The translations under genes were made by a program, and so were the position numbers. 44,158 bases of DNA from an uncultured Candidatus Saccharibacteria bacterium. GTDB lineage: Bacteria; Patescibacteriota; Minisyncoccia; Phycocordibacterales; XYD1-FULL-46-19. This document shows, piece by piece, positions 4,613 through 22,967 of the stretch. The notes under the pieces are model-generated. The model worked only from the letters and a program-made list of their open reading frames with translations, made no database searches and was not told the origin of the DNA. The stretch is taken from the NCBI GenBank assembly GCA_964446245.1, contig CAYUNI010000004.1:1-44158 (forward strand). Direction: 5' to 3'. Position 1 is the first letter of the stretch. Each line of letters opens with the position of its first letter.

Positions 4613-4701
4613 GCCTATGGCGGTTCATCATTCATTAAGTGCTGCTGGACGCGGCTCGCCCTGCGGCTTCACTTTGTTGCGCCGGCTTTGCGGGCTCCGC
4701 C

Positions 4702-4717
4702 GTTCGAATCCCCGTAG
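4702..4717 (+). repeat. Inverted 16-nt copy of the tRNA-Glu T-arm/acceptor segment
   Basis: gttcgaatccccgtag is the exact reverse complement of 4776-4791. It is followed by tgcca, and the flanking GC-rich sequence does not complete a tRNA. Confidence 0.9.
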
Positions 4718-4721
4718 TGCC

Positions 4722-4757
4722 AAAAAAATATAATCGCCAAATACCTCCGTATTCGGC
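4722..4757 (-). terminator. Putative intrinsic terminator downstream of tRNA-Glu
   Basis: In minus sense the hairpin is GCCGAATAC-GGAG-GTATTTGGC (9 bp including one G-U). It is followed by GATTATATTTTTTT. Confidence 0.5.
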
Positions 4758-4770
4758 TCATTATTTTTTA

Positions 4771-4842
4771 TGACCCTACGGGGATTCGAACCCCGATTTC
4801 CACCGTGAGAGGGTGATGTCCTAACCATTAGACGATAGGGCC
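4771..4842 (-). tRNA. tRNA-Glu (anticodon CUC)
   Basis: Reverse complement is GGCCCTA TC GTCT AATGGTTA GGAC A TCACC CTCTCAC GGTGG AAAT CGGGG TTCGAAT CCCCG TAGGGTC A. This is a full 72-nt cloverleaf with strong similarity to bacterial tRNA-Glu (TCGTCTA..GG..AGGACA...TCACGG...GGGGTTCGAATCCCC). CCA is not encoded. Confidence 0.92.
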
Positions 4843-4879
4843 TTAATTTTACAAACTTAGCTCTTTGACCTTAAACCTC

Positions 4880-4996
4880 GTGAAAGGGTGATGTCCCTTG
4901 CCCGACACGCAAGACGAGCTTGGCGAGTCTTTCGGGCGGGCCCGCCCGAACGACTGTATCGTTCAGTCGGGCGGGTGACCATTAGACGATAGGGCC
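4880..4996 (-). pseudogene. tRNA-Glu(UUC)-like 5' half (acceptor through anticodon loop) with an 81-nt insertion in the D-loop and no 3' half
   Basis: GGCCCTATCGTCTAATGGT (4996-4978) and GGACATCACCCTTTCAC (4896-4880) match the neighbouring tRNA-Glu apart from the anticodon TTC. The bases 4897-4977 replace the 2 nt TA of the D-loop. After position 38 the sequence (GAGGTTTAAGG...) cannot form the anticodon stem or a T-arm. Confidence 0.65.
4897..4977. repeat. GC-rich twin-hairpin insertion containing a perfect 20-nt palindrome
   Basis: In minus sense, CCCGCCCGA occurs twice, TCGGGCGGG once and TCGGGC once, which allows alternative hairpins. ttcgggcgggcccgcccgaa (4931-4950) is a perfect palindrome. 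The element is very GC-rich against AT-rich flanks. Confidence 0.85.
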
Positions 4997-5909: not shown

Positions 5910-7208
5910 TCACCTTTTAAGCCACTCCGATTCCTGACGCACCAGAAGAGAACTTTTTTTCTCTGGCTCCAACATTATCTCCTCTACCGCTCGTTCCAAA
6001 CGGATTGATTGAGAGCCTTTAAAATAAATTAGATCATTTTTCTCCACAAAATTCTGCAAAAAATTTCCCGCCTCTTTCGCTTCATCAAAACTTTTAATCT
6101 TTTTATCGGACATTCCCGCCTCTTTCGCTCCTTCCACAAAAAACTTCGCTCGCATACCTACTGTCACCAAAAAATCAGCACACTTAGCTATTTGCTCTCC
6201 AGCCAAACGATGAGCCTCAACCGTCTTCCCTCCCAGCTCCATCATATCCCCTAAAACAACTATCTTTCGCCCCGCAATCTCGACTTCTTTTACCAGATCC
6301 AAACCAGCGCTCAAAGCAGCCGGGGAAGAATTGTAGGCATCATCAATAATCAAAGTTTCTTTAATTCCCAAAAGAGGCGATAAGCGCCCCGGCATAGGTT
6401 TAATTTGGGTTAAATTATCAGCCACTTGGACCACATTTAGTCCCCGGCTCAAACCAACAGCCAAAGCAGCCAAAACCATTCCCACTTGATGATGAGCAAG
6501 AATTCCCGATAGGCGAAAAGGCCAACTCTGCCCTTGATAATCAACTTTAAAAGTTCGTCCTAAAATCTTTTTCCCTTCTTTATCGTCAAAAAACAAATGG
6601 TCGTTAGAAGCCTGTAAGTCAGCTCCCGAATCAAAACCGTAACTCAAAACTTTTGCCCCAACTCTTGGTCGCAATGATCGAATTATCGGATCATCAAAAT
6701 TTAAAATAGCAATTGCTCCGGGAGATAAATTTTCAATCAAACAAAATTTTTCCTCAATCAATTCTTCTTTTGATTTAAAAAATTCAATATGAACCGGAAT
6801 CTCTGGCAAATGGGTCAAGACTGCCACTTCAAATTTAAGCCAACGGCAAGCACGCCGAATATCTCCTGGACGATCAGCCCCGATTTCTAAAACAAGCCAT
6901 TCAGGATAATCATGCTTAAAACAAATCAAGGATAAACCCTGGGCAATAATTTCTAACCAACCAAAAATATCACCCCAAGCGCTACCTGCCCCAATAATGG
7001 TAAGCGGGATCCCTAATTCGCTATTATAGCTTTTTTCACTCTTACGCAATTTAAAATGGCCAGACAAGACAGTCGCGATTACCTCTTTGGTGGAAGTTTT
7101 CCCAACACTACCAGTCACCCCTATTAATTTAGGTTTATATTTTTTTAAAATTAATCTCGCCTCCCATTCCAAAATACCAATAACAATTTTTTTAAATATT
7201 TTCTTCAT
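5910..7208 (-). CDS. murF: UDP-N-acetylmuramoyl-tripeptide--D-alanyl-D-alanine ligase
   Basis: Mur ligase P-loop GVTGSVGKTSTKE and the MurF-typical VLGDMMELG block. Sits directly downstream of ftsI in a dcw-type cluster. Confidence 0.85.
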   Translation of the reverse strand: MKKIFKKIVIGILEWEARLILKKYKPKLIGVTGSVGKTSTKEVIATVLSGHFKLRKSEKSYNSELGIPLTIIGAGSAWGDIFGWLEIIAQGLSLICFKHDYPEWLVLEIGADRPGDIRRACRWLKFEVAVLTHLPEIPVHIEFFKSKEELIEEKFCLIENLSPGAIAILNFDDPIIRSLRPRVGAKVLSYGFDSGADLQASNDHLFFDDKEGKKILGRTFKVDYQGQSWPFRLSGILAHHQVGMVLAALAVGLSRGLNVVQVADNLTQIKPMPGRLSPLLGIKETLIIDDAYNSSPAALSAGLDLVKEVEIAGRKIVVLGDMMELGGKTVEAHRLAGEQIAKCADFLVTVGMRAKFFVEGAKEAGMSDKKIKSFDEAKEAGNFLQNFVEKNDLIYFKGSQSIRLERAVEEIMLEPEKKSSLLVRQESEWLKR

Positions 7209-7231
7209 ATAAACCTTAATTTAAAATCTTT

Positions 7232-8944
7232 TTAACGGTCTGGTGGAATCTGATAATAATTTAACAAAAACTTGGTAATTTCTGAAAATGGCTCCGCCAA
7301 AGTTTCATTGGAATATTTTCCCTCTTTCGGATAAACCGTATAAAGAAAAACAAGAAACCGCGGATTACTAGCAGGGAAATAGCCAAAAAACGAATGCAGG
7401 AAACGATCAGCATAATACCCACCGCCAGCGGGGTTGGCCATTTGAGCAGTACCCGTCTTAGCTGCAATACTATAATTGGTTAATTTAATCTTACCTAAAG
7501 CGCTTGAAGTATCAACCGCTTTAACCAACATTCTTGAAATCTCCTTGCTTGTCTCTGGTTTCAAGACTCGACGAATAATAATCGGTTTAGTCTCCTTCGT
7601 CAATAAATTGTCAAAACGAATTTCTCTTACAACATAGGGTTTAACTAAGACTCCGCCATTCGCCAAAGAACAAAGCGCCCGCACTGTGCCGATTGGGGTC
7701 GTGGCTATCCCCTGCCCAAAAGAAGCATTAGCAAAATCGACATCAATATTACCGTCTAAATTTTTTATTTTTCCAGCAATCTCACCCGGCAAATCAATAT
7801 CCGTTTTTTCTCCTAAACCATAATTTTTAAAATACTCCCGAAAATTAGATTGACCGATTTTCTGTTGAACAAAAGTCGTGCCGACATTTAAAGATTGAGT
7901 CAATATTTCTTGAATAGGAATTCGCCCGCGCGCCTTTTTGTCGTGATTAGAAATTGTTTTTCCGCTAACTTTAATAGAGCCAGTATCATTATAGACAGTA
8001 TCAGCGGTCACTACTCTCAAATCTAAGCCAGCAGCAATTGTCAGTGGTTTGATAATCGAACCCATCTCTCGAGTTTCCATTAAAAATGGGTTATTTAAGG
8101 TTGCTAATTCGGCTTTACTTTCATTAGGATCAAAGTCTGGCAAAGAAGCCATCGCATAAATCGCTCCTGTTTGCGGATCAATTATCATTCCTTGGACAGA
8201 GTCCGAACGCTGTTTGGACATCACCTCAGAGAGCTTTTTCTCCAAAAAATTCTGGACTACAGGCTCGATAGATAAAACAACATCTCCTCGTGTCGTTAAA
8301 TTATTTTTTCTCAAAACAGTCCCGACTTCAGAAAAAATCTCAATAAAAAAATTTTTAAACGACTGTTCCTCCGACCGAGATAAAACATCATCATAAGATT
8401 TCTCTACTCCATAACGAGCGGCATAATCATCTCCCTGATAGCCCAAAAATCCAATCACTTTCGAAGCTGTCCGCCCAGCAGGATAAAAACGCCATTTTTC
8501 TTTGGCCGTGATTACTCCTTTTAGATCAAGGGCTTTTATTTTATCAGCCGACTCCTTGGCGACTCGTCTGGCGATTTCTTCGTTAGGGTCATTTTTCTTG
8601 TTCGCCTTAGCCATAAACTCTTCCTCATTTAATTCTGGCAAAATTCCCTTCAATTTGGCAAAAGTCGTCGTCGCGTTCGGTCCAACTATTTGAGGTTTTA
8701 TCTGAATCAAGAAACCTAATTTTTGAGTGGCCGCCGTGACCAGACGGTCATCTTTAATGCTGAAAAAAATTGTCCCCCGCTCAAAAATATTTTTCGGCTT
8801 AAAATACTGGTGGTCAGCTTCTCCAACAAAATATTCTCCTCTTATAATTTGTAAATAGAAAAGTCTAACAACAAAAAGCAGACCGACCACCATTATCAAG
8901 GCCGCCAGAAGACGAATTCGTTTTTTACTGCCAACAATTTTCAT
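7232..8944 (-). CDS. ftsI: Class B penicillin-binding protein (division transpeptidase, FtsI/PBP3-like)
   Basis: N-terminal TM segment. SxxK (GSIIKP), SxN (QSLNVG) and KTG (KTGTA) motifs. Located between the ftsL-like gene and murF. Confidence 0.85.
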   Translation of the reverse strand: MKIVGSKKRIRLLAALIMVVGLLFVVRLFYLQIIRGEYFVGEADHQYFKPKNIFERGTIFFSIKDDRLVTAATQKLGFLIQIKPQIVGPNATTTFAKLKGILPELNEEEFMAKANKKNDPNEEIARRVAKESADKIKALDLKGVITAKEKWRFYPAGRTASKVIGFLGYQGDDYAARYGVEKSYDDVLSRSEEQSFKNFFIEIFSEVGTVLRKNNLTTRGDVVLSIEPVVQNFLEKKLSEVMSKQRSDSVQGMIIDPQTGAIYAMASLPDFDPNESKAELATLNNPFLMETREMGSIIKPLTIAAGLDLRVVTADTVYNDTGSIKVSGKTISNHDKKARGRIPIQEILTQSLNVGTTFVQQKIGQSNFREYFKNYGLGEKTDIDLPGEIAGKIKNLDGNIDVDFANASFGQGIATTPIGTVRALCSLANGGVLVKPYVVREIRFDNLLTKETKPIIIRRVLKPETSKEISRMLVKAVDTSSALGKIKLTNYSIAAKTGTAQMANPAGGGYYADRFLHSFFGYFPASNPRFLVFLYTVYPKEGKYSNETLAEPFSEITKFLLNYYQIPPDR

Positions 8945-14731: not shown

Positions 14732-15548
14732 AGATCATTACCCACTGTAATTCATAAATATTAACAGGTATTTTAAACAAAACTCGCAAATAAGGATTGG
14801 TGGCAGTCTCCTCAATTTTACCAACCTGCCCCAAAATTAATTTCTCACCAGATGGTGATTCAATAATATCTCCCACTTTTACCCCTACCCCCTTTGGTAA
14901 AGAAATAGAAAAATTACCACCACCCAAACCTTTAGCCACCGCTGCCAAATTGAGCCGGCTAATATTTATTGCAATTTGTGAACCATAGGAAGAATACAAT
15001 TTTACTTTAGCTTTGCTGCCTCCGTAAACTTCCGCAACCTCTCCCAAAAGCACCGTCTGGCCAGAAGCCACGACTTTATCACCTACTTTTACAAAATGAT
15101 TTTGTGACCCAATATCGACCAAAAGAATATCATAAGGGGTTTGATTAGGGCGAGCAATTATTTGCCCTAAAACAAACTTTTGGCTATTTTTTGTTAAAGA
15201 TAAAACTTGTCGAAGATCACTATTCTCTCGTTGCAAAATTTGTTTATTCAAAAGAGCAATTCGCAAATTTTCATTACTCCGTTTTAAATTTTTATTTTCT
15301 TCAACCAAATTATTTTTACTACTAAAATAAGTCGATAAACGTTGCAGGCTATTACTCCAATTTTCTGCCGCCGACCAGACTGGTTGCCCGACAAAAACTA
15401 AGGGTCGAAAAAGCCAACCCAACAAAGTCGGACCTAAAAAATATATTAAAACTAAAACAAAAAACCACGCCCAGCTCCAGGAAAAACGGCGGTGTCCAGA
15501 AAAATTATCAAAACTATTACCGCGGAGGTAATTCATCTTCGTTATCAA
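14718..15548 (-). CDS. mreC: Rod shape-determining protein MreC
   Basis: TM anchor, a coiled-coil segment (ENKNLKRSNENLRIALLNKQILQRENSDLRQ) and a beta-rich C-domain. Follows mreB. The true start may be the internal ATG (MNYLRG). Confidence 0.75.
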   Translation of the reverse strand: MITKMNYLRGNSFDNFSGHRRFSWSWAWFFVLVLIYFLGPTLLGWLFRPLVFVGQPVWSAAENWSNSLQRLSTYFSSKNNLVEENKNLKRSNENLRIALLNKQILQRENSDLRQVLSLTKNSQKFVLGQIIARPNQTPYDILLVDIGSQNHFVKVGDKVVASGQTVLLGEVAEVYGGSKAKVKLYSSYGSQIAINISRLNLAAVAKGLGGGNFSISLPKGVGVKVGDIIESPSGEKLILGQVGKIEETATNPYLRVLFKIPVNIYELQWVMIYVDY

Positions 15549-16572
15549 TTAAAATATCTCGAAAACGATCGACATCTTCTAAAATTAAAGCGGTACCTCG
15601 AACGACAGCCGTAAGAGGATCTTCTGCCATATGAATTGGAATTTGAAGCTCTCTTTCTAAGAGCTCTTGCATGCCATGGATCATCGCTCCGCCACCAGCA
15701 ACAATCACTCCTCGACGCATAATATCAGACAAAACTTCGGGTGGGGTAGTTTCCAAGACCTCTTTAATCGCTTCCACAAAAATATCAATCGACTGAGCAA
15801 TCGCTTCACGAATATCACTATCAGTGATTACCACCTCGCGAGGCAAACCAGTCACCAAATCACGCCCCCGTATCGTTGCTTCTCGTCCCGGTCCACTCTT
15901 ATAGACTGAACCAATCGCCACTTTTACTTCTTCAGCCGTTTTTTCTCCTAATAAAATTTTAAATTCATCACGAACATAACCAATAATATCTTGATTTAAT
16001 TTTTCACCAGCAATATGTAAAGTTCGAGAACGAACAATCCCCCCCAAGGAAATCACGGCAATATCAGTCGTCCCACCCCCGATATCAATCACCATACTAC
16101 CGACCGGATCAAAAACTGGTAGCTTAATACCAATCGCTGCCGCCATTGGCTCTTCGACAATATGGACCTCACGAGCGCCAGCATTACGAGCCGCATCTCG
16201 GACCGCTCGGCGTTCGACGTTGGTAATACTCGATGGCACTCCGACAACTAGGCGCGGACGGAAAATAGCTTTTTTAGAAATCTGAGCTGTTTTACGCAAA
16301 AAGTAAGAGAGCATTTCCTCTGCCACTTCAAAATTAGAAATCACTCCACCAACCAAAGGTCGAACAGCGACAATATGAGCTGGAGTCCGACCAATCATCT
16401 GGCTGGCATCTGTCCCCACCGCCACCACTCGACCAGTCTTTTGATTGATAGCAACGATCGACGGCTCAACTATCACAATCCCATGGTCCTTTAAATAGAC
16501 CAAGGTATTAGCGGTACCCAAATCAATACCAACATCATTAGAAAAAATTTTATAAAATCGTTCAAAAATCAT
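15517..16572 (-). CDS. mreB: Rod shape-determining actin homologue MreB
   Basis: GIDLGTANTLVY, DIGGGTTDIAVISLGG and VVAGGGA phosphate/adenosine motifs of the MreB/actin fold. Confidence 0.9.
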   Translation of the reverse strand: MIFERFYKIFSNDVGIDLGTANTLVYLKDHGIVIVEPSIVAINQKTGRVVAVGTDASQMIGRTPAHIVAVRPLVGGVISNFEVAEEMLSYFLRKTAQISKKAIFRPRLVVGVPSSITNVERRAVRDAARNAGAREVHIVEEPMAAAIGIKLPVFDPVGSMVIDIGGGTTDIAVISLGGIVRSRTLHIAGEKLNQDIIGYVRDEFKILLGEKTAEEVKVAIGSVYKSGPGREATIRGRDLVTGLPREVVITDSDIREAIAQSIDIFVEAIKEVLETTPPEVLSDIMRRGVIVAGGGAMIHGMQELLERELQIPIHMAEDPLTAVVRGTALILEDVDRFRDILIDNEDELPPR

Positions 16573-16579
16573 TTTACTT

Positions 16580-17830
16580 TTATTTTATCGACAATCGTTT
16601 TATTGCCTCTTCCGGAGAAATAAGTTCTGTTTCTTCGCTTATTCGTTTCTTCCACTCTACACCTCCAGAGGCCAAACTCTTTTCACTGACCACTACTCGA
16701 TAGGGCAAGCCAAACAAATCGGCATCGGCAAATTTTTCTCCCGGAGTAAGATCTCGGTCATCATACAGCACTTCGACACCAGATGCGAGAAGTTGATTAT
16801 AAAGAGAATCAGCCGCTGTCTTCACTTCTCCTGTACCTGCTTTAGACAAAGCAACCAAAGACACCTTAAACGGAGCAATGGCCTCTGGCCAGACTAAGCC
16901 TTTTTTATCAGACAGAACCTCAGCAATAGTCCCCAAAAGCCTAGTCGGACCAATTCCATAACATCCCATAAAGACCGGTCCCAAATTACCAGATTCATCC
17001 TTAAAATTTAAGCCCAAAGGAAGAGAATAACGGGTGCCAAGTTTAAAGATATTACCAACTTCAATTGCTTTTTTCTCCTCCAAATTTTCCGCGCTTAATC
17101 CTAATTGAGTTAAAACTTCCGGCTCATAAACCTCACTATTAACCGCAATTTTTTGCTCTGTAGATAAATGTATTGTATCCTCGCCAGCCTCACTTATGGT
17201 TTGAAATTCATGGCTATATTTACTAAAAGAACCACCGCTAGCAAAAGTGCAAAAGGTCAAATCGCCAAGACCAATCCGAGAAAAAATTCGCGAGTAAACC
17301 GCCATCACCTCGTCATAAAAACGATCCAAATCCTCTTGATTACGATGAAAGGAATACAAATCTTTCATTAAAAACTCTCGGCCGCGCATAACCCCGCTTT
17401 TGGCTCGTTCTTCATTGCGAAATTTAGTCTGGATCTGATAAATCGCCAAAGGTAAATCCCGATAAGATTCGAGATGATTTTTTAATAGATTCGTAATTGG
17501 CTCCTCATGAGTCCAGCCCAAAGTAAGCTCTCCACCAACTTTAAGCTCGGTTCTAAAAGCGACATCCGCCTCATAGCGTCCAGTCGCCTTCCAAATCTCC
17601 GGATTTTGTAAGGCGGTTAATTGCAATTCTTGCGCCCCGAGACTATCCATTTCCTCACGAATTATTTTATTAATCTTTTCCAAAACCCTAAGACCAAGAG
17701 GTAAAAGAGAATATACTCCGGCCATTTCTTTGTGCACAAAACCAGCCCGAATGAGCAATTTAGCATTCTGGGCAACCTCATCTCGCGGATCGTCCCGCCG
17801 AGTCTTGGTAAATAAAGAAGATTGACGCAT
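16580..17830 (-). CDS. proS: Proline--tRNA ligase, short form without an INS editing domain
   Basis: ProRS N-terminus (LLIRAGFVHKEMAGVYSLLPLGLRV), motif 2 (FRNEERAKSGVMRGREFLMKDLYSFH) and motif 3 (GCYGIGPTR). Only ~130 aa lie between motifs 2 and 3, and the total length is 416 aa. Confidence 0.85.
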   Translation of the reverse strand: MRQSSLFTKTRRDDPRDEVAQNAKLLIRAGFVHKEMAGVYSLLPLGLRVLEKINKIIREEMDSLGAQELQLTALQNPEIWKATGRYEADVAFRTELKVGGELTLGWTHEEPITNLLKNHLESYRDLPLAIYQIQTKFRNEERAKSGVMRGREFLMKDLYSFHRNQEDLDRFYDEVMAVYSRIFSRIGLGDLTFCTFASGGSFSKYSHEFQTISEAGEDTIHLSTEQKIAVNSEVYEPEVLTQLGLSAENLEEKKAIEVGNIFKLGTRYSLPLGLNFKDESGNLGPVFMGCYGIGPTRLLGTIAEVLSDKKGLVWPEAIAPFKVSLVALSKAGTGEVKTAADSLYNQLLASGVEVLYDDRDLTPGEKFADADLFGLPYRVVVSEKSLASGGVEWKKRISEETELISPEEAIKRLSIK

Positions 17831-17866
17831 ATGCCCCTATACTAGCCTAAAGAAGAAGCCAGGGCA

Positions 17867-17907
17867 AGATAACCCCTATTTTTGCGAAGCAAAAATAGGG
17901 GTTATCT
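17867..17907. other. Perfect 19-bp stem-loop with a GCGAAGC-type triloop between the islet and proS
   Basis: agataacccctatttttgc-gaa-gcaaaaataggggttatct. Both arms are exact complements. Confidence 0.9.
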
Positions 17908-17937
17908 CCAAATTACTAACTAGCCAGTCTACTAACT

Positions 17938-17967
17938 TGCTCCGATGGATATATAAAGTTCGAAACC
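17938..17967. repeat. Islet repeat copy R1
   Basis: TGCTCCGATGGATATATAAAGTTCGAAACC. It runs into the TAG stop (17967-17969) of the NDT-like gene, overlapping its last base. Confidence 0.8.
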
Positions 17968-18356
17968 TAGGCCTGGGCAGATAAGGGTTTAATAATATCT
18001 TCGATATTCTCGTATTCAATAATTTTATCAGCCACTCCCGTGACTGTGTCTTTGACCGTTGTACCCTTCTTTGTTATCAGAAAGATTTTCTTATTTAAGG
18101 CGTAAGCTATCCCAAGCTCAATAATTCGACCATTGCCTGGCCCATCGTAATCAATCAGTAACCCATCGCATTTTTCAATTTCTTCTTTGGCTCGTCGCAT
18201 TAACTCGTGAGAGTCATTAAAAATTTTCTGATAGTTTTCAATGTCACGAATAAAACAAAAATCTTCGAATCCTGATTGTTTTACCACGGAGCACAACTCT
18301 TCAATTTCTTTTTTATTTTCTCCATTTCTAAACGGTGCAGTAATGTATATTTTCAT
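17967..18356 (-). CDS. Nucleoside 2-deoxyribosyltransferase-like protein
   Basis: 129 aa: MKIYITAPF...CDGLLIDYDGPGNGRIIELGIAYALNKKIFLI. It shows the flavodoxin-like NDT/Rcl pattern with the conserved E in the ExGxA block. Confidence 0.6.
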   Translation of the reverse strand: MKIYITAPFRNGENKKEIEELCSVVKQSGFEDFCFIRDIENYQKIFNDSHELMRRAKEEIEKCDGLLIDYDGPGNGRIIELGIAYALNKKIFLITKKGTTVKDTVTGVADKIIEYENIEDIIKPLSAQA

Positions 18357-18443
18357 AAACTAAATCATACCAAAAATCATTCAGCGGTTCTACGTCCTAC
18401 TCGGGGTACGTCAAAAACACGTTGAAAAAAAAGATAAAAAATG

Positions 18444-18471
18444 TGCTCCGATGGGTAGAGGAAGTTAGAAC
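18444..18471. repeat. Islet repeat copy R2
   Basis: TGCTCCGATGGGTAGAGGAAGTTAGAAC. Confidence 0.85.
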
Positions 18472-18480
18472 TCTTATATA

Positions 18481-18526
18481 AAAAGAAAACCGCCCGACAG
18501 AACCGAACGGTCTCTGTGGGCGGGTC
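18481..18526 (-). terminator. Intrinsic terminator of the 49-aa ORF
   Basis: In minus sense, GACCCGCCCACAGAGACCG-TT-CGGTTCTGTCGGGCGG forms a long imperfect stem. It is followed by TTTTCTTTTT. Confidence 0.75.
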
Positions 18527-18538
18527 ATATCTTATTGG

Positions 18539-18688
18539 TCAGGTCAACAAGAGCACGTGGACGAGTTGGAGTATTATCGTCCCAACAATTGCAACCACGA
18601 AGGAAACAAGGTATTTCCTTTTGCCTTGAAGCCAGGCTACCAACAAAATCAACACCAGCAGTAATATTACCAATAAAGGTATCGGCAT
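18539..18688 (-). CDS. 49-aa hydrophobic two-helix peptide
   Basis: The ORF track starts at TTG 18733. I prefer ATG 18688, which has GGAAGG 7 nt upstream. Sequence is MPIPLLVILLLVLILLVAWLQGKRKYLVSFVVAIVGTIILQLVHVLLLT, i.e. two TM helices separated by a KRK turn. It has its own promoter and terminator. Confidence 0.55.
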   Translation of the reverse strand: MPIPLLVILLLVLILLVAWLQGKRKYLVSFVVAIVGTIILQLVHVLLLT

Positions 18689-18749
18689 GTCTTTACCTTC
18701 CTTTCTCAAGGTTTGGGTCAATCTTCGAAACAAAAATCACTCTACTATC

Positions 18750-18779
18750 ATAATAGCACATCTATACTATTTTTGTCAA
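18750..18779 (-). promoter_or_regulatory. Sigma70-type promoter of the 49-aa ORF
   Basis: In minus sense, TTGACA, an 18-nt spacer, then TGcTATTAT (extended -10). The -35 hexamer lies 4 nt from repeat R3. Confidence 0.6.
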
Positions 18780-18782
18780 TAC

Positions 18783-18812
18783 TTGCTCCGATGGGTAGAG
18801 AAAGTTAGAACC
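18783..18812. repeat. Islet repeat copy R3
   Basis: TTGCTCCGATGGGTAGAGAAAGTTAGAACC. Confidence 0.85.
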
Positions 18813-18822
18813 GTTTTTATGT

Positions 18823-18855
18823 AAAAAAAGAAAACCGCCCTCCAACGGTTTTCTG
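18823..18855 (-). terminator. Intrinsic terminator of the 148-aa ORF
   Basis: In minus sense, AAAACCG-TTGGAGGG-CGGTTTT followed by CTTTTTTT. Confidence 0.7.
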
Positions 18856-18885
18856 TCCGTCCTTGAGCGGTTGTTTGCGAGTTCG

Positions 18886-19332
18886 CTATTCGGCATGGAC
18901 CTTGGAAGGCTCGCGTCCTCCTACGTCAAACCGAATGGAGTTCTTCCCCGAGGAGCGAACATGGATAACGGCTGATCCTTTGCTCGTTGGGCTGAATTGG
19001 TGGCGATGCTTCTCGCGAAAAGAGCAGTTAATCTCCGCCACACCCTTACGGCTATTGCTGTTGTAGGTCAGGATTATGGGTCTCTCGGTCGTCCCCGCAC
19101 CAGCAGTCCCCAGTTCCGCCCATCCGGCCAATAGGAACGTCACATTGCTCTCGATGGTTACGGAACTGATTCGGCACTCCAACTTCTTGCCCCCGACCTT
19201 TGGCTGTTCGTCTCCCTCTTCTTCGACCATGAACGTGACCTGTCGTCTCTCGGCATAGTCATACAGACAGAGAAGAACATCTATTCTTGGGGGGCCATTT
19301 ACAACGTGGAAAACTCTCGTAGCGGTAGCCAT
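18886..19332 (-). CDS. Hypothetical 148-aa protein (orphan, GC-rich)
   Basis: ATG 19332 has AAAGGAG 8 nt upstream. No recognisable motif. Composition is visibly more GC-rich than the flanking genes. Confidence 0.6.
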   Translation of the reverse strand: MATATRVFHVVNGPPRIDVLLCLYDYAERRQVTFMVEEEGDEQPKVGGKKLECRISSVTIESNVTFLLAGWAELGTAGAGTTERPIILTYNSNSRKGVAEINCSFREKHRHQFSPTSKGSAVIHVRSSGKNSIRFDVGGREPSKVHAE

Positions 19333-19439
19333 ACGGCAAACTCCTTTACAATTTTGCTCCTAAGTCGGTGTAGGAAGCGAACACCTTGTCTGCATAACGC
19401 AAACATGCCCAGTTCATACGAAAAGAGCATCTATTTCTG

Positions 19440-19467
19440 ATTATAGCACTTATCAAAAAAAAGTCAA
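19440..19467 (-). promoter_or_regulatory. Sigma70-type promoter of the 148-aa ORF
   Basis: In minus sense, TTGACT, a 16-nt spacer, then TGcTATAAT (extended -10). The -35 hexamer lies 4 nt from repeat R4. This predicts a ~100-nt 5' UTR. Confidence 0.6.
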
Positions 19468-19471
19468 TGTC

Positions 19472-19501
19472 TGCTCCGATGGGTAGAGAAAGTTCGGGAC
19501 C
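19472..19501. repeat. Islet repeat copy R4
   Basis: TGCTCCGATGGGTAGAGAAAGTTCGGGACC, 14 nt after the rseP stop codon. Confidence 0.85.
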
Positions 19502-19515
19502 GCTATTATCTCCCC

Positions 19516-20628
19516 CTACCACAATTTTTTGACATCAAAATAGGTGACGATAACCATCAACAAAATCAAGGCCAAAAAACCTGCCAAATTAAGCCAACCT
19601 GCCAATCGTGGGTTAATTTTTTTATTAGAAACACTTTCAGCTATCAAAAATAGCAAACGACCGCCATCGAGAGCTGGGATCGGGATTAGGTTCATTACCG
19701 CCAAATTAACCGAGATTATCGCTACAAACAAAAGAAGATAAGGTAAGCCCATAGCCGCCGCTCCACCAACCAAGCCGACCAAGCCGACCGGCCCCGACAC
19801 ACCTTCCACTAAAGTATGATCAGCAAAAAGCCTTGAAATTAAAATCCTCAGTCCATCAAAAGTATCCGTAGTAATTTTCAAGGTTAAACGAAAAGACTCT
19901 AAAGGAGCGGCGACAATCGGTAATTTTACAAAACTGACCATCTCTAAAGAAAGACCGACTTGCGGTTTGGTTTGATTATCAATCTTTTTGGGGCTCAAAG
20001 AATAATTTTTTAAATCTCCAGCTTTTGTTTTTATTGCCAGATTGATTTTAGAATTTGGCGATTCTTGAACAAATTCTCCCACCTGGCTGGCCTTTTTAGG
20101 AATCAATTTACGATCAGAACGACTCAAACTGATTATCTCGTCTCCCGGCTTAATCCCCGCCAAAAAAGCCGGAGAGCCATTAGAGACATTTGTCACCAAA
20201 AGTCTAGGCGCGGAAATCTGATCAATTTTAAAACCGGGATTTTCACTGCTAACCGGCAGGCCAATTATCAAACCAATCGCCAACAAAGCCCAAGCAAATA
20301 ACCAATTAAAGAAAACTCCCGCAAACAAAACTTTAAATTGAGACAAGCGTGGCAAGTTATTAAGCAGACGATTAGTGGGAATATTTGTCGCCTCTTCTTC
20401 AAAAGGATTTTCACCAGCAATTTTAACGAACCCACCAAAAGGAATCAAATTAAAAGAATAGATAGTTTCTCCGTGACGATAACGAAACAGGCGTGGAGGA
20501 AAACCAAGACCAAATTCCTCTACCACAGCACCAGCTTTTTTAGCCGCCCAAAAATGGCCCAACTCATGAACCAAAATCAAGACTTCTAAAACAACCAGAA
20601 ACAATAAAATGCTTAAGAAAGTAGTCAT
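19516..20628 (-). CDS. rseP: RIP (site-2) zinc metalloprotease RseP
   Basis: HELGH zinc motif near the N-terminus (LVHELGHFWAAK), a central PDZ-like segment, a polytopic membrane profile and a C-terminal NLIPIPALDGG block. Confidence 0.85.
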   Translation of the reverse strand: MTTFLSILLFLVVLEVLILVHELGHFWAAKKAGAVVEEFGLGFPPRLFRYRHGETIYSFNLIPFGGFVKIAGENPFEEEATNIPTNRLLNNLPRLSQFKVLFAGVFFNWLFAWALLAIGLIIGLPVSSENPGFKIDQISAPRLLVTNVSNGSPAFLAGIKPGDEIISLSRSDRKLIPKKASQVGEFVQESPNSKINLAIKTKAGDLKNYSLSPKKIDNQTKPQVGLSLEMVSFVKLPIVAAPLESFRLTLKITTDTFDGLRILISRLFADHTLVEGVSGPVGLVGLVGGAAAMGLPYLLLFVAIISVNLAVMNLIPIPALDGGRLLFLIAESVSNKKINPRLAGWLNLAGFLALILLMVIVTYFDVKKLW

Positions 20629-21953: not shown

Positions 21954-22967
21954 CTAATGTTTGGCGATAATACTCTTTTTATAAGTATCCAAATGATTTA
22001 ATGCCACTCCAGTCCCCTTAGCCACACAATATAAAGCCTCATCAGCCAAATAAGCTCGAACACCAGTCCGACGATAAATCAGTTCTGGCAAATTTCGTAA
22101 TTGAGATGTGCCGCCAGTCATTGTAATCCCCCGATCTATAATATCTGAAGAAAGTTCTGGTGGCGTTTCTTGGAAAACTACTTTAATCGCCTTAACCATT
22201 TCTCGTAGTTCATTATCTATTGCTTTTACAATCTCATTAGTTCTTATCTCTGCCGAACGAGGCAAACCGGTCAAAAAATCTCGTCCTTTGATAATAAAAA
22301 CTTCTTCCTCTTCGACCGGTACCGCCGAACCGATATTTATTTTAACCTCTTCCGCTGTTTTATCTCCGATCGCCAAGTTAAAGTTTTTCTTAATATAATC
22401 AGCAATCGCCTGATCAATTTTGTTTCCAGCATACTTAACAGAAGTCGAGGAAACAATTCCCCCCAAAGAAATCACAGCGACATCAGTCGTCCCACCACCA
22501 ATATCGACAATCATGTGCCCTCGAGCTTCGTGAATTGGTATCCCCGCACCGATCGCCGCTAAAATCGGCTCTTTCACCACATAAGCATTTTTAGCCCCCG
22601 CTTTCATTGCCGCCTCGATTACCGCTCGACGCTCGGTCGAAGTCACTCCCGCCGGAACGGAAACCATCACATCAGGTTTCAATAAATTGAATTTACCAAG
22701 AGCTTTGTTGATATAATAACGCAACATTGCTTCCGTCACTCGATAGTCAGCGATTACCCCATCTTTCATTGGTTTATAGGCAACAATAGTATCCGGAGTT
22801 TTGCCAACCATCTCTTTCGCCTCCGAACCGACCGCTACCACCTTATTATCCAAAAGAGAAACCGCTACTACCGATGGTTCATTCAAAACAATTCCCCGCC
22901 CAGGAACAAAAACCAAAGTGTTAGCTGTGCCTAAATCGATTCCTAGTTTTTTAACAAAAAAAGACAT
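21954..22967 (-). CDS. mreB: Second MreB/Mbl-family actin homologue
   Basis: GIDLGTANTLVF, DIGGGTTDVAVISLGG and MTGGTS motifs. 337 aa, paralogous to 15517-16572. Confidence 0.85.
   Translation of the reverse strand: MSFFVKKLGIDLGTANTLVFVPGRGIVLNEPSVVAVSLLDNKVVAVGSEAKEMVGKTPDTIVAYKPMKDGVIADYRVTEAMLRYYINKALGKFNLLKPDVMVSVPAGVTSTERRAVIEAAMKAGAKNAYVVKEPILAAIGAGIPIHEARGHMIVDIGGGTTDVAVISLGGIVSSTSVKYAGNKIDQAIADYIKKNFNLAIGDKTAEEVKINIGSAVPVEEEEVFIIKGRDFLTGLPRSAEIRTNEIVKAIDNELREMVKAIKVVFQETPPELSSDIIDRGITMTGGTSQLRNLPELIYRRTGVRAYLADEALYCVAKGTGVALNHLDTYKKSIIAKH

Follow-up and report, generated by a model that had tools for sequence, protein, structure and literature searches.

How did the gap between rseP and proS in an uncultured Candidatus Saccharibacteria bacterium come to be divided by four copies of one short direct repeat into three units, each with a gene of its own? 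The question is raised by 44,158 nucleotides (nt) of contig CAYUNI010000004.1, which were analysed as a whole and are called the window below. An earlier note on this DNA had read the layout as serial insertion of single-gene modules at one kind of site, with a shared operator or UP-like element as the alternative, and had judged it to fit no known cassette system. Our results suggest, with a confidence somewhat above even, that the repeats are att-type sites of serial integration in the style of that at tRNA sites, which here concerned miniature cassettes devoid of an integrase and an ectopic, non-tRNA site.

The 11-mer TGCTCCGATGG occurs exactly four times in the 44,158 bases when one mismatch at most is allowed, always on the plus strand (17938, 18444, 18784 and 19472). 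Shuffled sequences contained it 0.32 times on average, and in none of 100 shuffles were four occurrences reached. The pattern count and the shuffles thus confirmed four copies of a direct repeat of about 29 nt, in the same orientation and with the first 11 nt invariant. All are confined to the rseP-proS gap, and a fifth copy was absent from the window even when a profile built from all known copies was used. Read in the sense of the genes (minus strand), the repeat has the form GGTTCTAAC-YYYCYYYAYYCAW-CGGAGC(A/C), that is, two boxes around a central pyrimidine tract, and is 29-30 nt long, one additional base being present in the left box of the copies R1 and R4. In gene order, R4 (19472..19501; GGTCCCGAACTTTCTCTACCCATCGGAGCA) lies 15 nt past the rseP stop codon and forms the proximal border of the array. 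It is followed by R3 (18784..18812; GGTTCTAACTTTCTCTACCCATCGGAGCA) and R2 (18444..18472; AGTTCTAACTTCCTCTACCCATCGGAGCA), which additionally have the tail of the preceding terminator in common (family D2). R1 (17938..17967; GGTTTCGAACTTTATATATCCATCGGAGCA), the distal border, overlaps by one base the TAG of a gene for a nucleoside 2-deoxyribosyltransferase-like (NDT-like) protein. The units between the copies are numbered cassettes 1 to 3, starting from rseP.

Several familiar kinds of repeat could be dismissed. Dyad symmetry is absent from the repeat, as had been stated before, and so is a hairpin: when each of the four copies was folded as single-strand DNA, for either strand, the z-scores ranged from -0.24 to +1.22, no better than shuffles, and an attC-like hairpin was rejected on these grounds. 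The window copies matched no Rfam family and gave no ARAGORN hit, and thus gave no indication that the repeat itself is a tRNA gene, a fragment of one or a member of a known RNA family. The lack of dyad symmetry, the uniformly direct orientation of the copies and a GC skew without inflection led us to reject a dif/Xer site. A CRISPR array was rejected too, since the copies are spaced by 340-688 nt, with genes between them, as against regular spacers of 25-50 nt. Dispersed repeats of the REP-BIME type (repetitive extragenic palindromes and bacterial interspersed mosaic elements) were rejected given the lack of a palindrome and of an Rfam match, and the clustering of the copies.

The repeat is not peculiar to the window. 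It recurs in about nine other lineages of Patescibacteria, always intergenic and co-oriented. A scan of one genome per species led to OY970290.1 (L004), the complete 682-kb chromosome of a metagenome-assembled genome (MAG), in which at least seven full and two partial copies lie co-oriented within 5.2 kb, at a locus other than rseP-proS. Small, mostly uncharacterised genes on both strands are found between them, and the strict repeat pattern has no match in this chromosome outside the array. A metagenome pattern in which the right half was fixed had given no match. The scan with the left half alone (GTTCYAACTTYCTCYAYCCA) gave 33 loci, and in 9 of these the right half CCA[ATG]CGGAGC is retained, although it formed no part of the pattern; the others are chance matches in coding DNA. 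Search of genomes and metagenomes for the motif thus revealed clustered arrays in other Patescibacteria, with up to nine copies. Their consensus is (A)AACA-[GA]GTTCTAAC-YYYCYYYAYYCAW-CGGAGC[AC], with central variation almost wholly between C and T, and outside the pyrimidine tract the 29 nt are about 80-90% conserved between genomes. Variants of the right box are genome-specific: CCATCGGAGCA in the window, CCAACGGAGC[AC] in the contig L017 (L017/L018 correspond to Joint Genome Institute (JGI) Ga0116241_10003214 and to GCA_022710835.1) and TCCA[TA][CG]GGAGCA in L004. Partial or degenerate copies and half-remnants occur as well (L004 6175-6194; L017 about 8548-8560 and 7885-7913).

Chance similarity or an assembly artefact might be considered for DNA from a metagenome assembly, the more so as accidental matches did arise, one in a Proteobacteria MAG (L003) and those to 'GTTCCAAC'. 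We regard this explanation as negligible: none of the 100 shuffles reached four copies, the same array is present in independent assemblies from four samples, and the right half recurs in loci that were found by the left half only. Four scans of viral contigs returned chance matches or nothing, and BLAST against plasmid and phage records returned nothing, so that a phage or plasmid origin of the repeat was rejected. Public contigs of the L017 lineage end inside a repeat copy or just ahead of a repeated promoter block (L017 11622-11647; the end of L020). Ends of this kind indicate that the repeats break short-read assemblies, and such arrays may therefore be under-represented in MAGs.

The genes beside the copies encode methyltransferases, a DnaJ-domain protein, a kinase-like AAA_33 protein, an isochorismatase, a phosphoribosyltransferase, a cyclodipeptide synthase, an Imm5-like immunity protein (one gene, in L029) and many ORFans (ORF, open reading frame). 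No gene common to all arrays was found, a regulator gene included. Nine of 24 copies abut or overlap the stop codon of the upstream gene, and a co-oriented promoter and gene lie downstream of 18 of the 24. The latter count, the ending of R3 and R4 at 4 nt ahead of the -35 hexamer and the two-box form, which suggests recognition by a protein, would agree with a site to which a regulator or insulator protein common to a set of accessory genes binds (an operator or UP-like element), the position at the borders then being a by-product. However, the distance from the copy to the -35 hexamer is 4, 4, 7-8, 10, 10 or about 13 nt, or the hexamer is absent. A terminator directly follows the copies at L017 8391 and L029 2849, and a convergent gene is met at L004 4989, 1849 and 6414; at least five copies thus have a terminator directly after them or lack a co-oriented downstream gene. 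Furthermore, the copies are clustered, with none elsewhere in the window or, by the strict pattern, in the 682-kb genome, no regulator gene is conserved among the arrays, and the homology to tRNA-Asn described below would be left unexplained. In the DNA covered, the motif is thus not dispersed at a fixed distance upstream of unrelated promoters, and the operator proposed as an alternative in the note appears improbable. An alternative-sigma promoter formed by the two boxes was rejected on account of the 13 nt between ..AAC and CG.. and of the terminators directly after some copies.

One thing that the att-type reading has in its favour is the likeness of the repeat to a tRNA gene end. The array in L017 lies directly downstream of a tRNA-Asn(GTT) gene (4891-4964, 71 bits) and is co-oriented with it. 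The 3' end of this gene, GGTTCGAGTCCTACCCGCGGAGCA, is followed by a promoter flank which we designate type C (ttttttaagccttatttt..ttttggtatact). The same flank stands downstream of the copy at L017 6622-6649 (AGTTCGCACGTCCTCCACCCGCGGAGCA), in which all 23 terminal positions of tRNA-Asn are matched and 4 bases are inserted. By manual alignment, the canonical repeat is identical with this copy at 22 of 28 positions, with extra bases at the same places, and in L025 it is the canonical repeat that stands ahead of the type C flank. The repeat displays tRNA-like boxes, namely a T-loop box GGTTC.AAC and then ...CTACCC..CGGAGC(CA), and its score against tRNA-Asn is 14-19, whereas with five other tRNAs it scores 8-14. 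At the end of many copies stands GGAGCCA, which we take to be the acceptor strand of tRNA-Asn with G73 and CCA. From the L017 copy, the shared flank, the GGAGCCA ends and the scores it follows that the repeat, as judged by its sequence, is a stretched pseudo-3'-end of tRNA-Asn and not a faithful copy of it. Elements that insert into tRNA genes leave repeats of this type behind as att scars. The opinion that the layout fits no known cassette system has thus to be revised, as an att sequence like the 3' end of tRNA-Asn is in line with tandem integrations at tRNA genes. Two further features of L017 may be mentioned: an ORF for 78 amino acids (aa) of the GIY-YIG type ends 3 nt ahead of the tRNA-Asn gene (4652-4964), and one cassette (6726-7849) carries an acetyltransferase together with a cyclodipeptide synthase (PF16715).

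A second line of evidence comes from modules shared with L017. BLAST matched window positions 18824-18436 to L017 9223-9610, which is the module of a hydrophobic (transmembrane, TM) peptide extending from R3 to R2, and positions 18474-17939 to L017 7883-8418, the NDT module from R2 to R1. No other part of the 44 kb matches L017, and similarity ends at the repeat. The order of the modules is [148aa][TM][NDT] in the window as against [NDT][methyltransferase][TM][WD40] in L017, where the NDT gene and those after it read as NDT, repeat, terminator remnant, methyltransferase, repeat, TM peptide, repeat, WD40 protein, repeat. Eight differences in about 315 nt separate the bodies of the TM modules (cassette 2 and L017 9263-9570; 97.5% identity), whereas the NDT genes differ at 40 of 390 nt (89.7% identity), 31 of these 40 being third codon positions. 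This unequal divergence indicates that the two modules have separate histories. Taken as a whole, the NDT module is 86% identical in DNA to L017 7883-8418, and its protein 93%.

Homologs of the NDT-like protein at 93% and 84% identity stand far above the ceiling of 47% observed for RseP. The 93% homolog is present on L017/L018 and also in L019, L020 and L028, and across many Patescibacteria the protein is 60-75% identical; the gene is either very conserved or else often transferred. In lineages without the motif it resides in ordinary operons, and similarity is limited to the coding region. In lineages without the repeat it was also seen just downstream of tRNA-Ser(GGA) (L021:7761-8384; L058:9257-10402), with an additional DUF5680 gene in between in L058, and the vicinity of tRNA-Ser(GGA) may be another tRNA-proximal variable spot.

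Is there any sign that the array varies within a population? The rseP contig (L015) of the Logan assembly of SRR12487046 stops exactly on the last base of R4, window position 19472, and its neighbour (L001) covers window positions 19501 to 17919. The two overlap by the 30 nt of R4, and the end of L001 at 17919 lies 30 nt past the first base of the invariant core of R1. Logan graphs are made from 31-mers, with k-mers seen once dropped and contigs of 150 bp or less unreported. When a graph with k=31 was simulated from the window alone, no break appeared. Once a single molecule with R4 fused to the right-hand flank of R1 was added, all three ends were reproduced (19472, 19501 and 17919), which neither a circle junction (predicted as TTTATATATCCATCGGAGCAGACATTGACT) nor the partial deletions R4::R3, R4::R2, R3::R1 and R2::R1 did. 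The predicted R4::R1 junction reads ..CTCTACCCATCGGAGCAAGTTAGTAGACTGG.., or CTTTCTCTACCCATCGGAGCAAGTTAGTAGACTGGC. The simulation matches the contig ends, and SRR12487046 probably contains, besides, genomes without the three cassettes or with a replacement that shares both borders.

In the mechanism that we propose, each unit between repeats would be a miniature cassette without an integrase: a promoter of its own precedes one gene or a few, a terminator usually follows, and the 3' end bears a copy of the repeat. A site-specific recombinase acting in trans, supplied by the genome or by a helper element, would insert and remove such cassettes, with crossing over in CGGAGC, the conserved box on the right, of the tRNA-Asn gene itself or of a repeat copy already in place. 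Successive insertions would then build up a co-oriented array, and the window would contain one of three cassettes at an ectopic or pseudo-site 15 nt past rseP. The crossover is placed in the CGGAGC box because three kinds of junction coincide there. The left border of the near-identical TM block is ..CGGAGCA followed directly by AGTATTGACA; the deduced R4::R1 junction falls within CCATCGGAGCA; and the tRNA, its stretched copy and the canonical repeat all meet the type C flank right after CGGAGCA. On this view the system would still be active at present.

A number of observations weigh against this proposal. No recombinase was found in the window, as the note had already remarked, by Pfam scans of ORFs of at least 110 aa (29 ORFs, ten of them re-scanned singly, and four more; frr, holB and the second mreB were unscanned and nine weaker families unlisted), and among about 70 neighbour proteins of the other loci, taken from 5-14 kb per locus, there was no strong match to one. 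The repeat has neither dyad symmetry nor a hairpin. No tRNA gene lies beside the array of the window, where 17800-19600 contains no tRNA-like match and the sole tRNA is a tRNA-Glu (4771-4842), and none lies beside the arrays in the stretches of L004, L025, L031, L033, L054 and L056. The R4::R1 variant is deduced from contig ends only, the junction itself (a unitig of 49 nt, below the Logan reporting size) and the contig on the proS side being unseen, and SRR6837582 contains a strain of 99.5% identity whose array is the same, with no variation. The window and the stretches of the other loci, L017 included, have no housekeeping gene in common by which the kinship of the organisms could be judged. 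The genome-specific variants of the right box do not fit in either. Finally, on both sides of the 97.5% identical TM cassette the flanking copies disagree, in their central pyrimidine tract, at 5-6 of 29 positions. This would not be predicted by a single fixed crossover, which would carry one tract along with the cassette; fast change between C and T, a long heteroduplex region or correction against resident copies could possibly account for it.

A rival explanation would be that the repeats are inactive scars of old tRNA-Asn-like integrations, and that variation arises by RecA-dependent or illegitimate recombination at the short repeats and at promoter and terminator blocks. A recombinase was found in no locus, degenerate, partial and half-remnant copies exist, homology could be provided by longer shared blocks (the tails of terminators and the promoters of types A, B and C), and deletion between R4 and R1 requires just the 11-nt identical core. 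On the other hand, neutral scars would decay, yet the two boxes are about 80-90% conserved between genomes that share no other DNA, and the replacement of pyrimidine by pyrimidine in the centre resembles constraint. Stretches of 9-11 identical nt are, moreover, poor substrates for homologous recombination. We consider the scars a rather unlikely explanation, although one that deserves more weight than the operator. As regards the serial insertion of single-gene modules at one kind of site, shared modules in a different order, arrays of up to nine copies and the deduced variant bear it out in part, while recombinase and reaction were unobserved.

The best matches of RseP belong to Paceibacterota/Patescibacteria and do not exceed 47% identity among 5.8 billion proteins, so that a close relative for an empty-site comparison was unavailable. 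In two distant relatives with the same synteny the content of the gap is unrelated and devoid of the repeat. One gap contains a 65-aa ORF; that of L012 (RseP 46% identical; 7384-7785) contains a 93-nt unit repeated three to four times in tandem, together with two ORFs, of 90 aa and, in reverse orientation, of 140 aa. The repeat was absent from the relatives L010, L012, L021 and L058-60. As the gaps of the distant relatives differ in content, the rseP-proS gap is a variable spot in the group; variation of content was thus found at this junction, while an empty site with one repeat was not met.

The anatomy of the array in the window agrees in its details with the description in the note; the cassettes with their parts, rseP and proS are on the minus strand, and no strand applies to the inverted repeat. 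The flanking gene order is mreB-holB-frr-rseP ... proS-mreB-mreC-pbp2, with rseP (site-2 protease, 19516..20628) as the conserved flank upstream of the array and proS (prolyl-tRNA synthetase, 16580..17830) as that downstream. Two MreB paralogs (15517-16572 and 21954-22967) bracket the region, and do so likewise in the distant relatives L010 and L012. Cassette 1 (18813..19471) consists of a promoter TTGACT-16-TGcTATAAT (19467..19440), which begins 4 nt after the end of R4, a 148-aa ORFan (18886-19332) with an AAGGAG ribosome-binding site, and, downstream of the latter, a terminator hairpin (18854..18829) with a T-run. The ORFan is visibly richer in GC than its surroundings (about 0.55, range 0.53-0.56, against about 0.40). 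It has no Pfam match. Apart from a strain variant at 99% identity, its relatives are just a few remote homologs, 105-153 aa long, and ten matches to its domain lie within one protein of 1244 aa. An AlphaFold2 model made without an alignment was unusable (predicted local distance difference test score, pLDDT, of 32). Cassette 2 (18473..18783) has a promoter TTGACA-18-TGcTATTAT (18779..18750), again beginning 4 nt after the end of the repeat, in this case R3, the ORF of the 49-aa hydrophobic peptide (18539-18688; a 64-aa version with a TTG start extends to 18733) and, downstream of the ORF, a terminator hairpin with a T-run (18514..18486). In cassette 3 (17968..18443) a promoter block of about 90 nt, type B, precedes the 129-aa NDT-like gene (17967-18356; PF05014), with the -10 element TGgTATGAT (18372..18364) 7 nt ahead of the ATG. 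Between R1 and proS lies an inverted repeat of 19 bp, perfect and with a loop of 3 nt (17867-17907). For want of a T-run on either strand it does not qualify as a standard terminator, and it is perhaps part of the resident flank; a CopA-like Rfam match at this place is weak (E 0.5) and probably meaningless.

The type B block (..ccccgagtaggacRtagaaccgc..gatttttggTATGAT) is non-coding and is conserved ahead of unrelated genes in several genomes, occurring at 18357-18443 in the window, at 7914-8000, 8495-8585 and 9603-9660 in L017 and at 4579-4648 in L056. The position of the ATG about 7 nt past the -10 element in this block suggests leaderless mRNAs. Two further recurring promoter blocks, types A and C, also stand after the repeat.

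Patescibacteria have tiny genomes, and their gain and loss of accessory genes are poorly understood. We found no description of the repeat, or of such arrays in Patescibacteria, in the literature. A wider proposal, which we make tentatively and with rather less than even confidence, is that these bacteria possess an integron-like capture platform, in which self-expressed one-gene cassettes, whose recombination site is a conserved, stretched 29-nt mimic of the 3' end of tRNA-Asn, are stacked by a trans-acting recombinase at tRNA-Asn or at ectopic pseudo-sites like the rseP-proS gap, and are exchanged among distantly related episymbionts of the same habitats. A compact cassette system with a 29-nt border would provide a handle on the flexible gene pool of Patescibacteria in metagenomes, and would explain contig breaks and variable spots in their assemblies. 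The repeat would also be a candidate site of a novel recombinase and, potentially, a genetic tool for intractable organisms.

With integrons and clusters of attC sites lacking integron-integrases (CALINs) the system described here shares dense, co-oriented arrays of small, unrelated and mostly uncharacterised cassettes, a site at the 3' end of the cassette, often on the stop codon, and cassettes that recur in different order. However, the site is 29-30 nt long, without a palindrome, hairpin or R''/R' boxes, whereas attC is an imperfect palindrome of 57-141 nt with R''/L''/L'/R' boxes, and each cassette has a promoter-like site of its own, with no adjacent intI, attI or Pc. In rAID-1 of Bacteroidales a conserved XerD-family recombinase stands first in the array, and the immunity-type genes after it have repetitive sequence between them (bioRxiv 10.1101/471110). 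Arrays of small accessory genes and repetitive intergenic sequence are common to both, as is immunity-type cargo in the one Imm5-like gene of L029, but no recombinase was seen in our loci, the phylum is another one, and the repeats of rAID-1 are unrelated to tRNA. Staphylococcal cassette chromosome (SCC) elements at rlmH and pdif/Xer modules resemble the array in serial insertion within the 3' end of a housekeeping gene or just past it, in units bounded by direct repeats and in the reliance of some units on a recombinase in trans. SCC units, in contrast, measure many kilobases and use Ccr serine recombinases, neither of which applies here. A pdif site has an 11-6-11 structure (28 bp) with partial dyad and alternating orientation, whereas in our repeat, as judged by eye from the aligned copies, only 4 of 11 arm positions match when inverted and all copies are direct; dif itself lies at the terminus, and the GC skew is uniformly negative across the window.

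The closest likeness is to tycheposons of Prochlorococcus, in which site-specific integrations occur in tandem at tRNA genes (bioRxiv 10.1101/2020.12.28.424599). Direct repeats derived from the 3' part of a tRNA gene and degenerate partial copies scattered in the island are found in both, and in the L017 lineage only the array likewise begins at an intact tRNA-Asn. Coexisting subpopulations without an element would have their counterpart here in the probable R4::R1 variant. The units described here differ in measuring 0.3-2 kb, in comprising for the most part one gene that brings its promoter and terminator along, and in the lack of an integrase or replication module; the repeat is conserved in a stretched form, longer by about 5 bases, and not as a faithful partial tRNA; and the window and most other loci have no adjacent tRNA gene. 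The layout follows the logic of tandem tRNA-gene integration, miniaturised to single self-expressed genes without an integrase, at an ectopic site, and it joins two ideas that are usually kept separate, integration at tRNA genes and the integron-like stacking of single genes.

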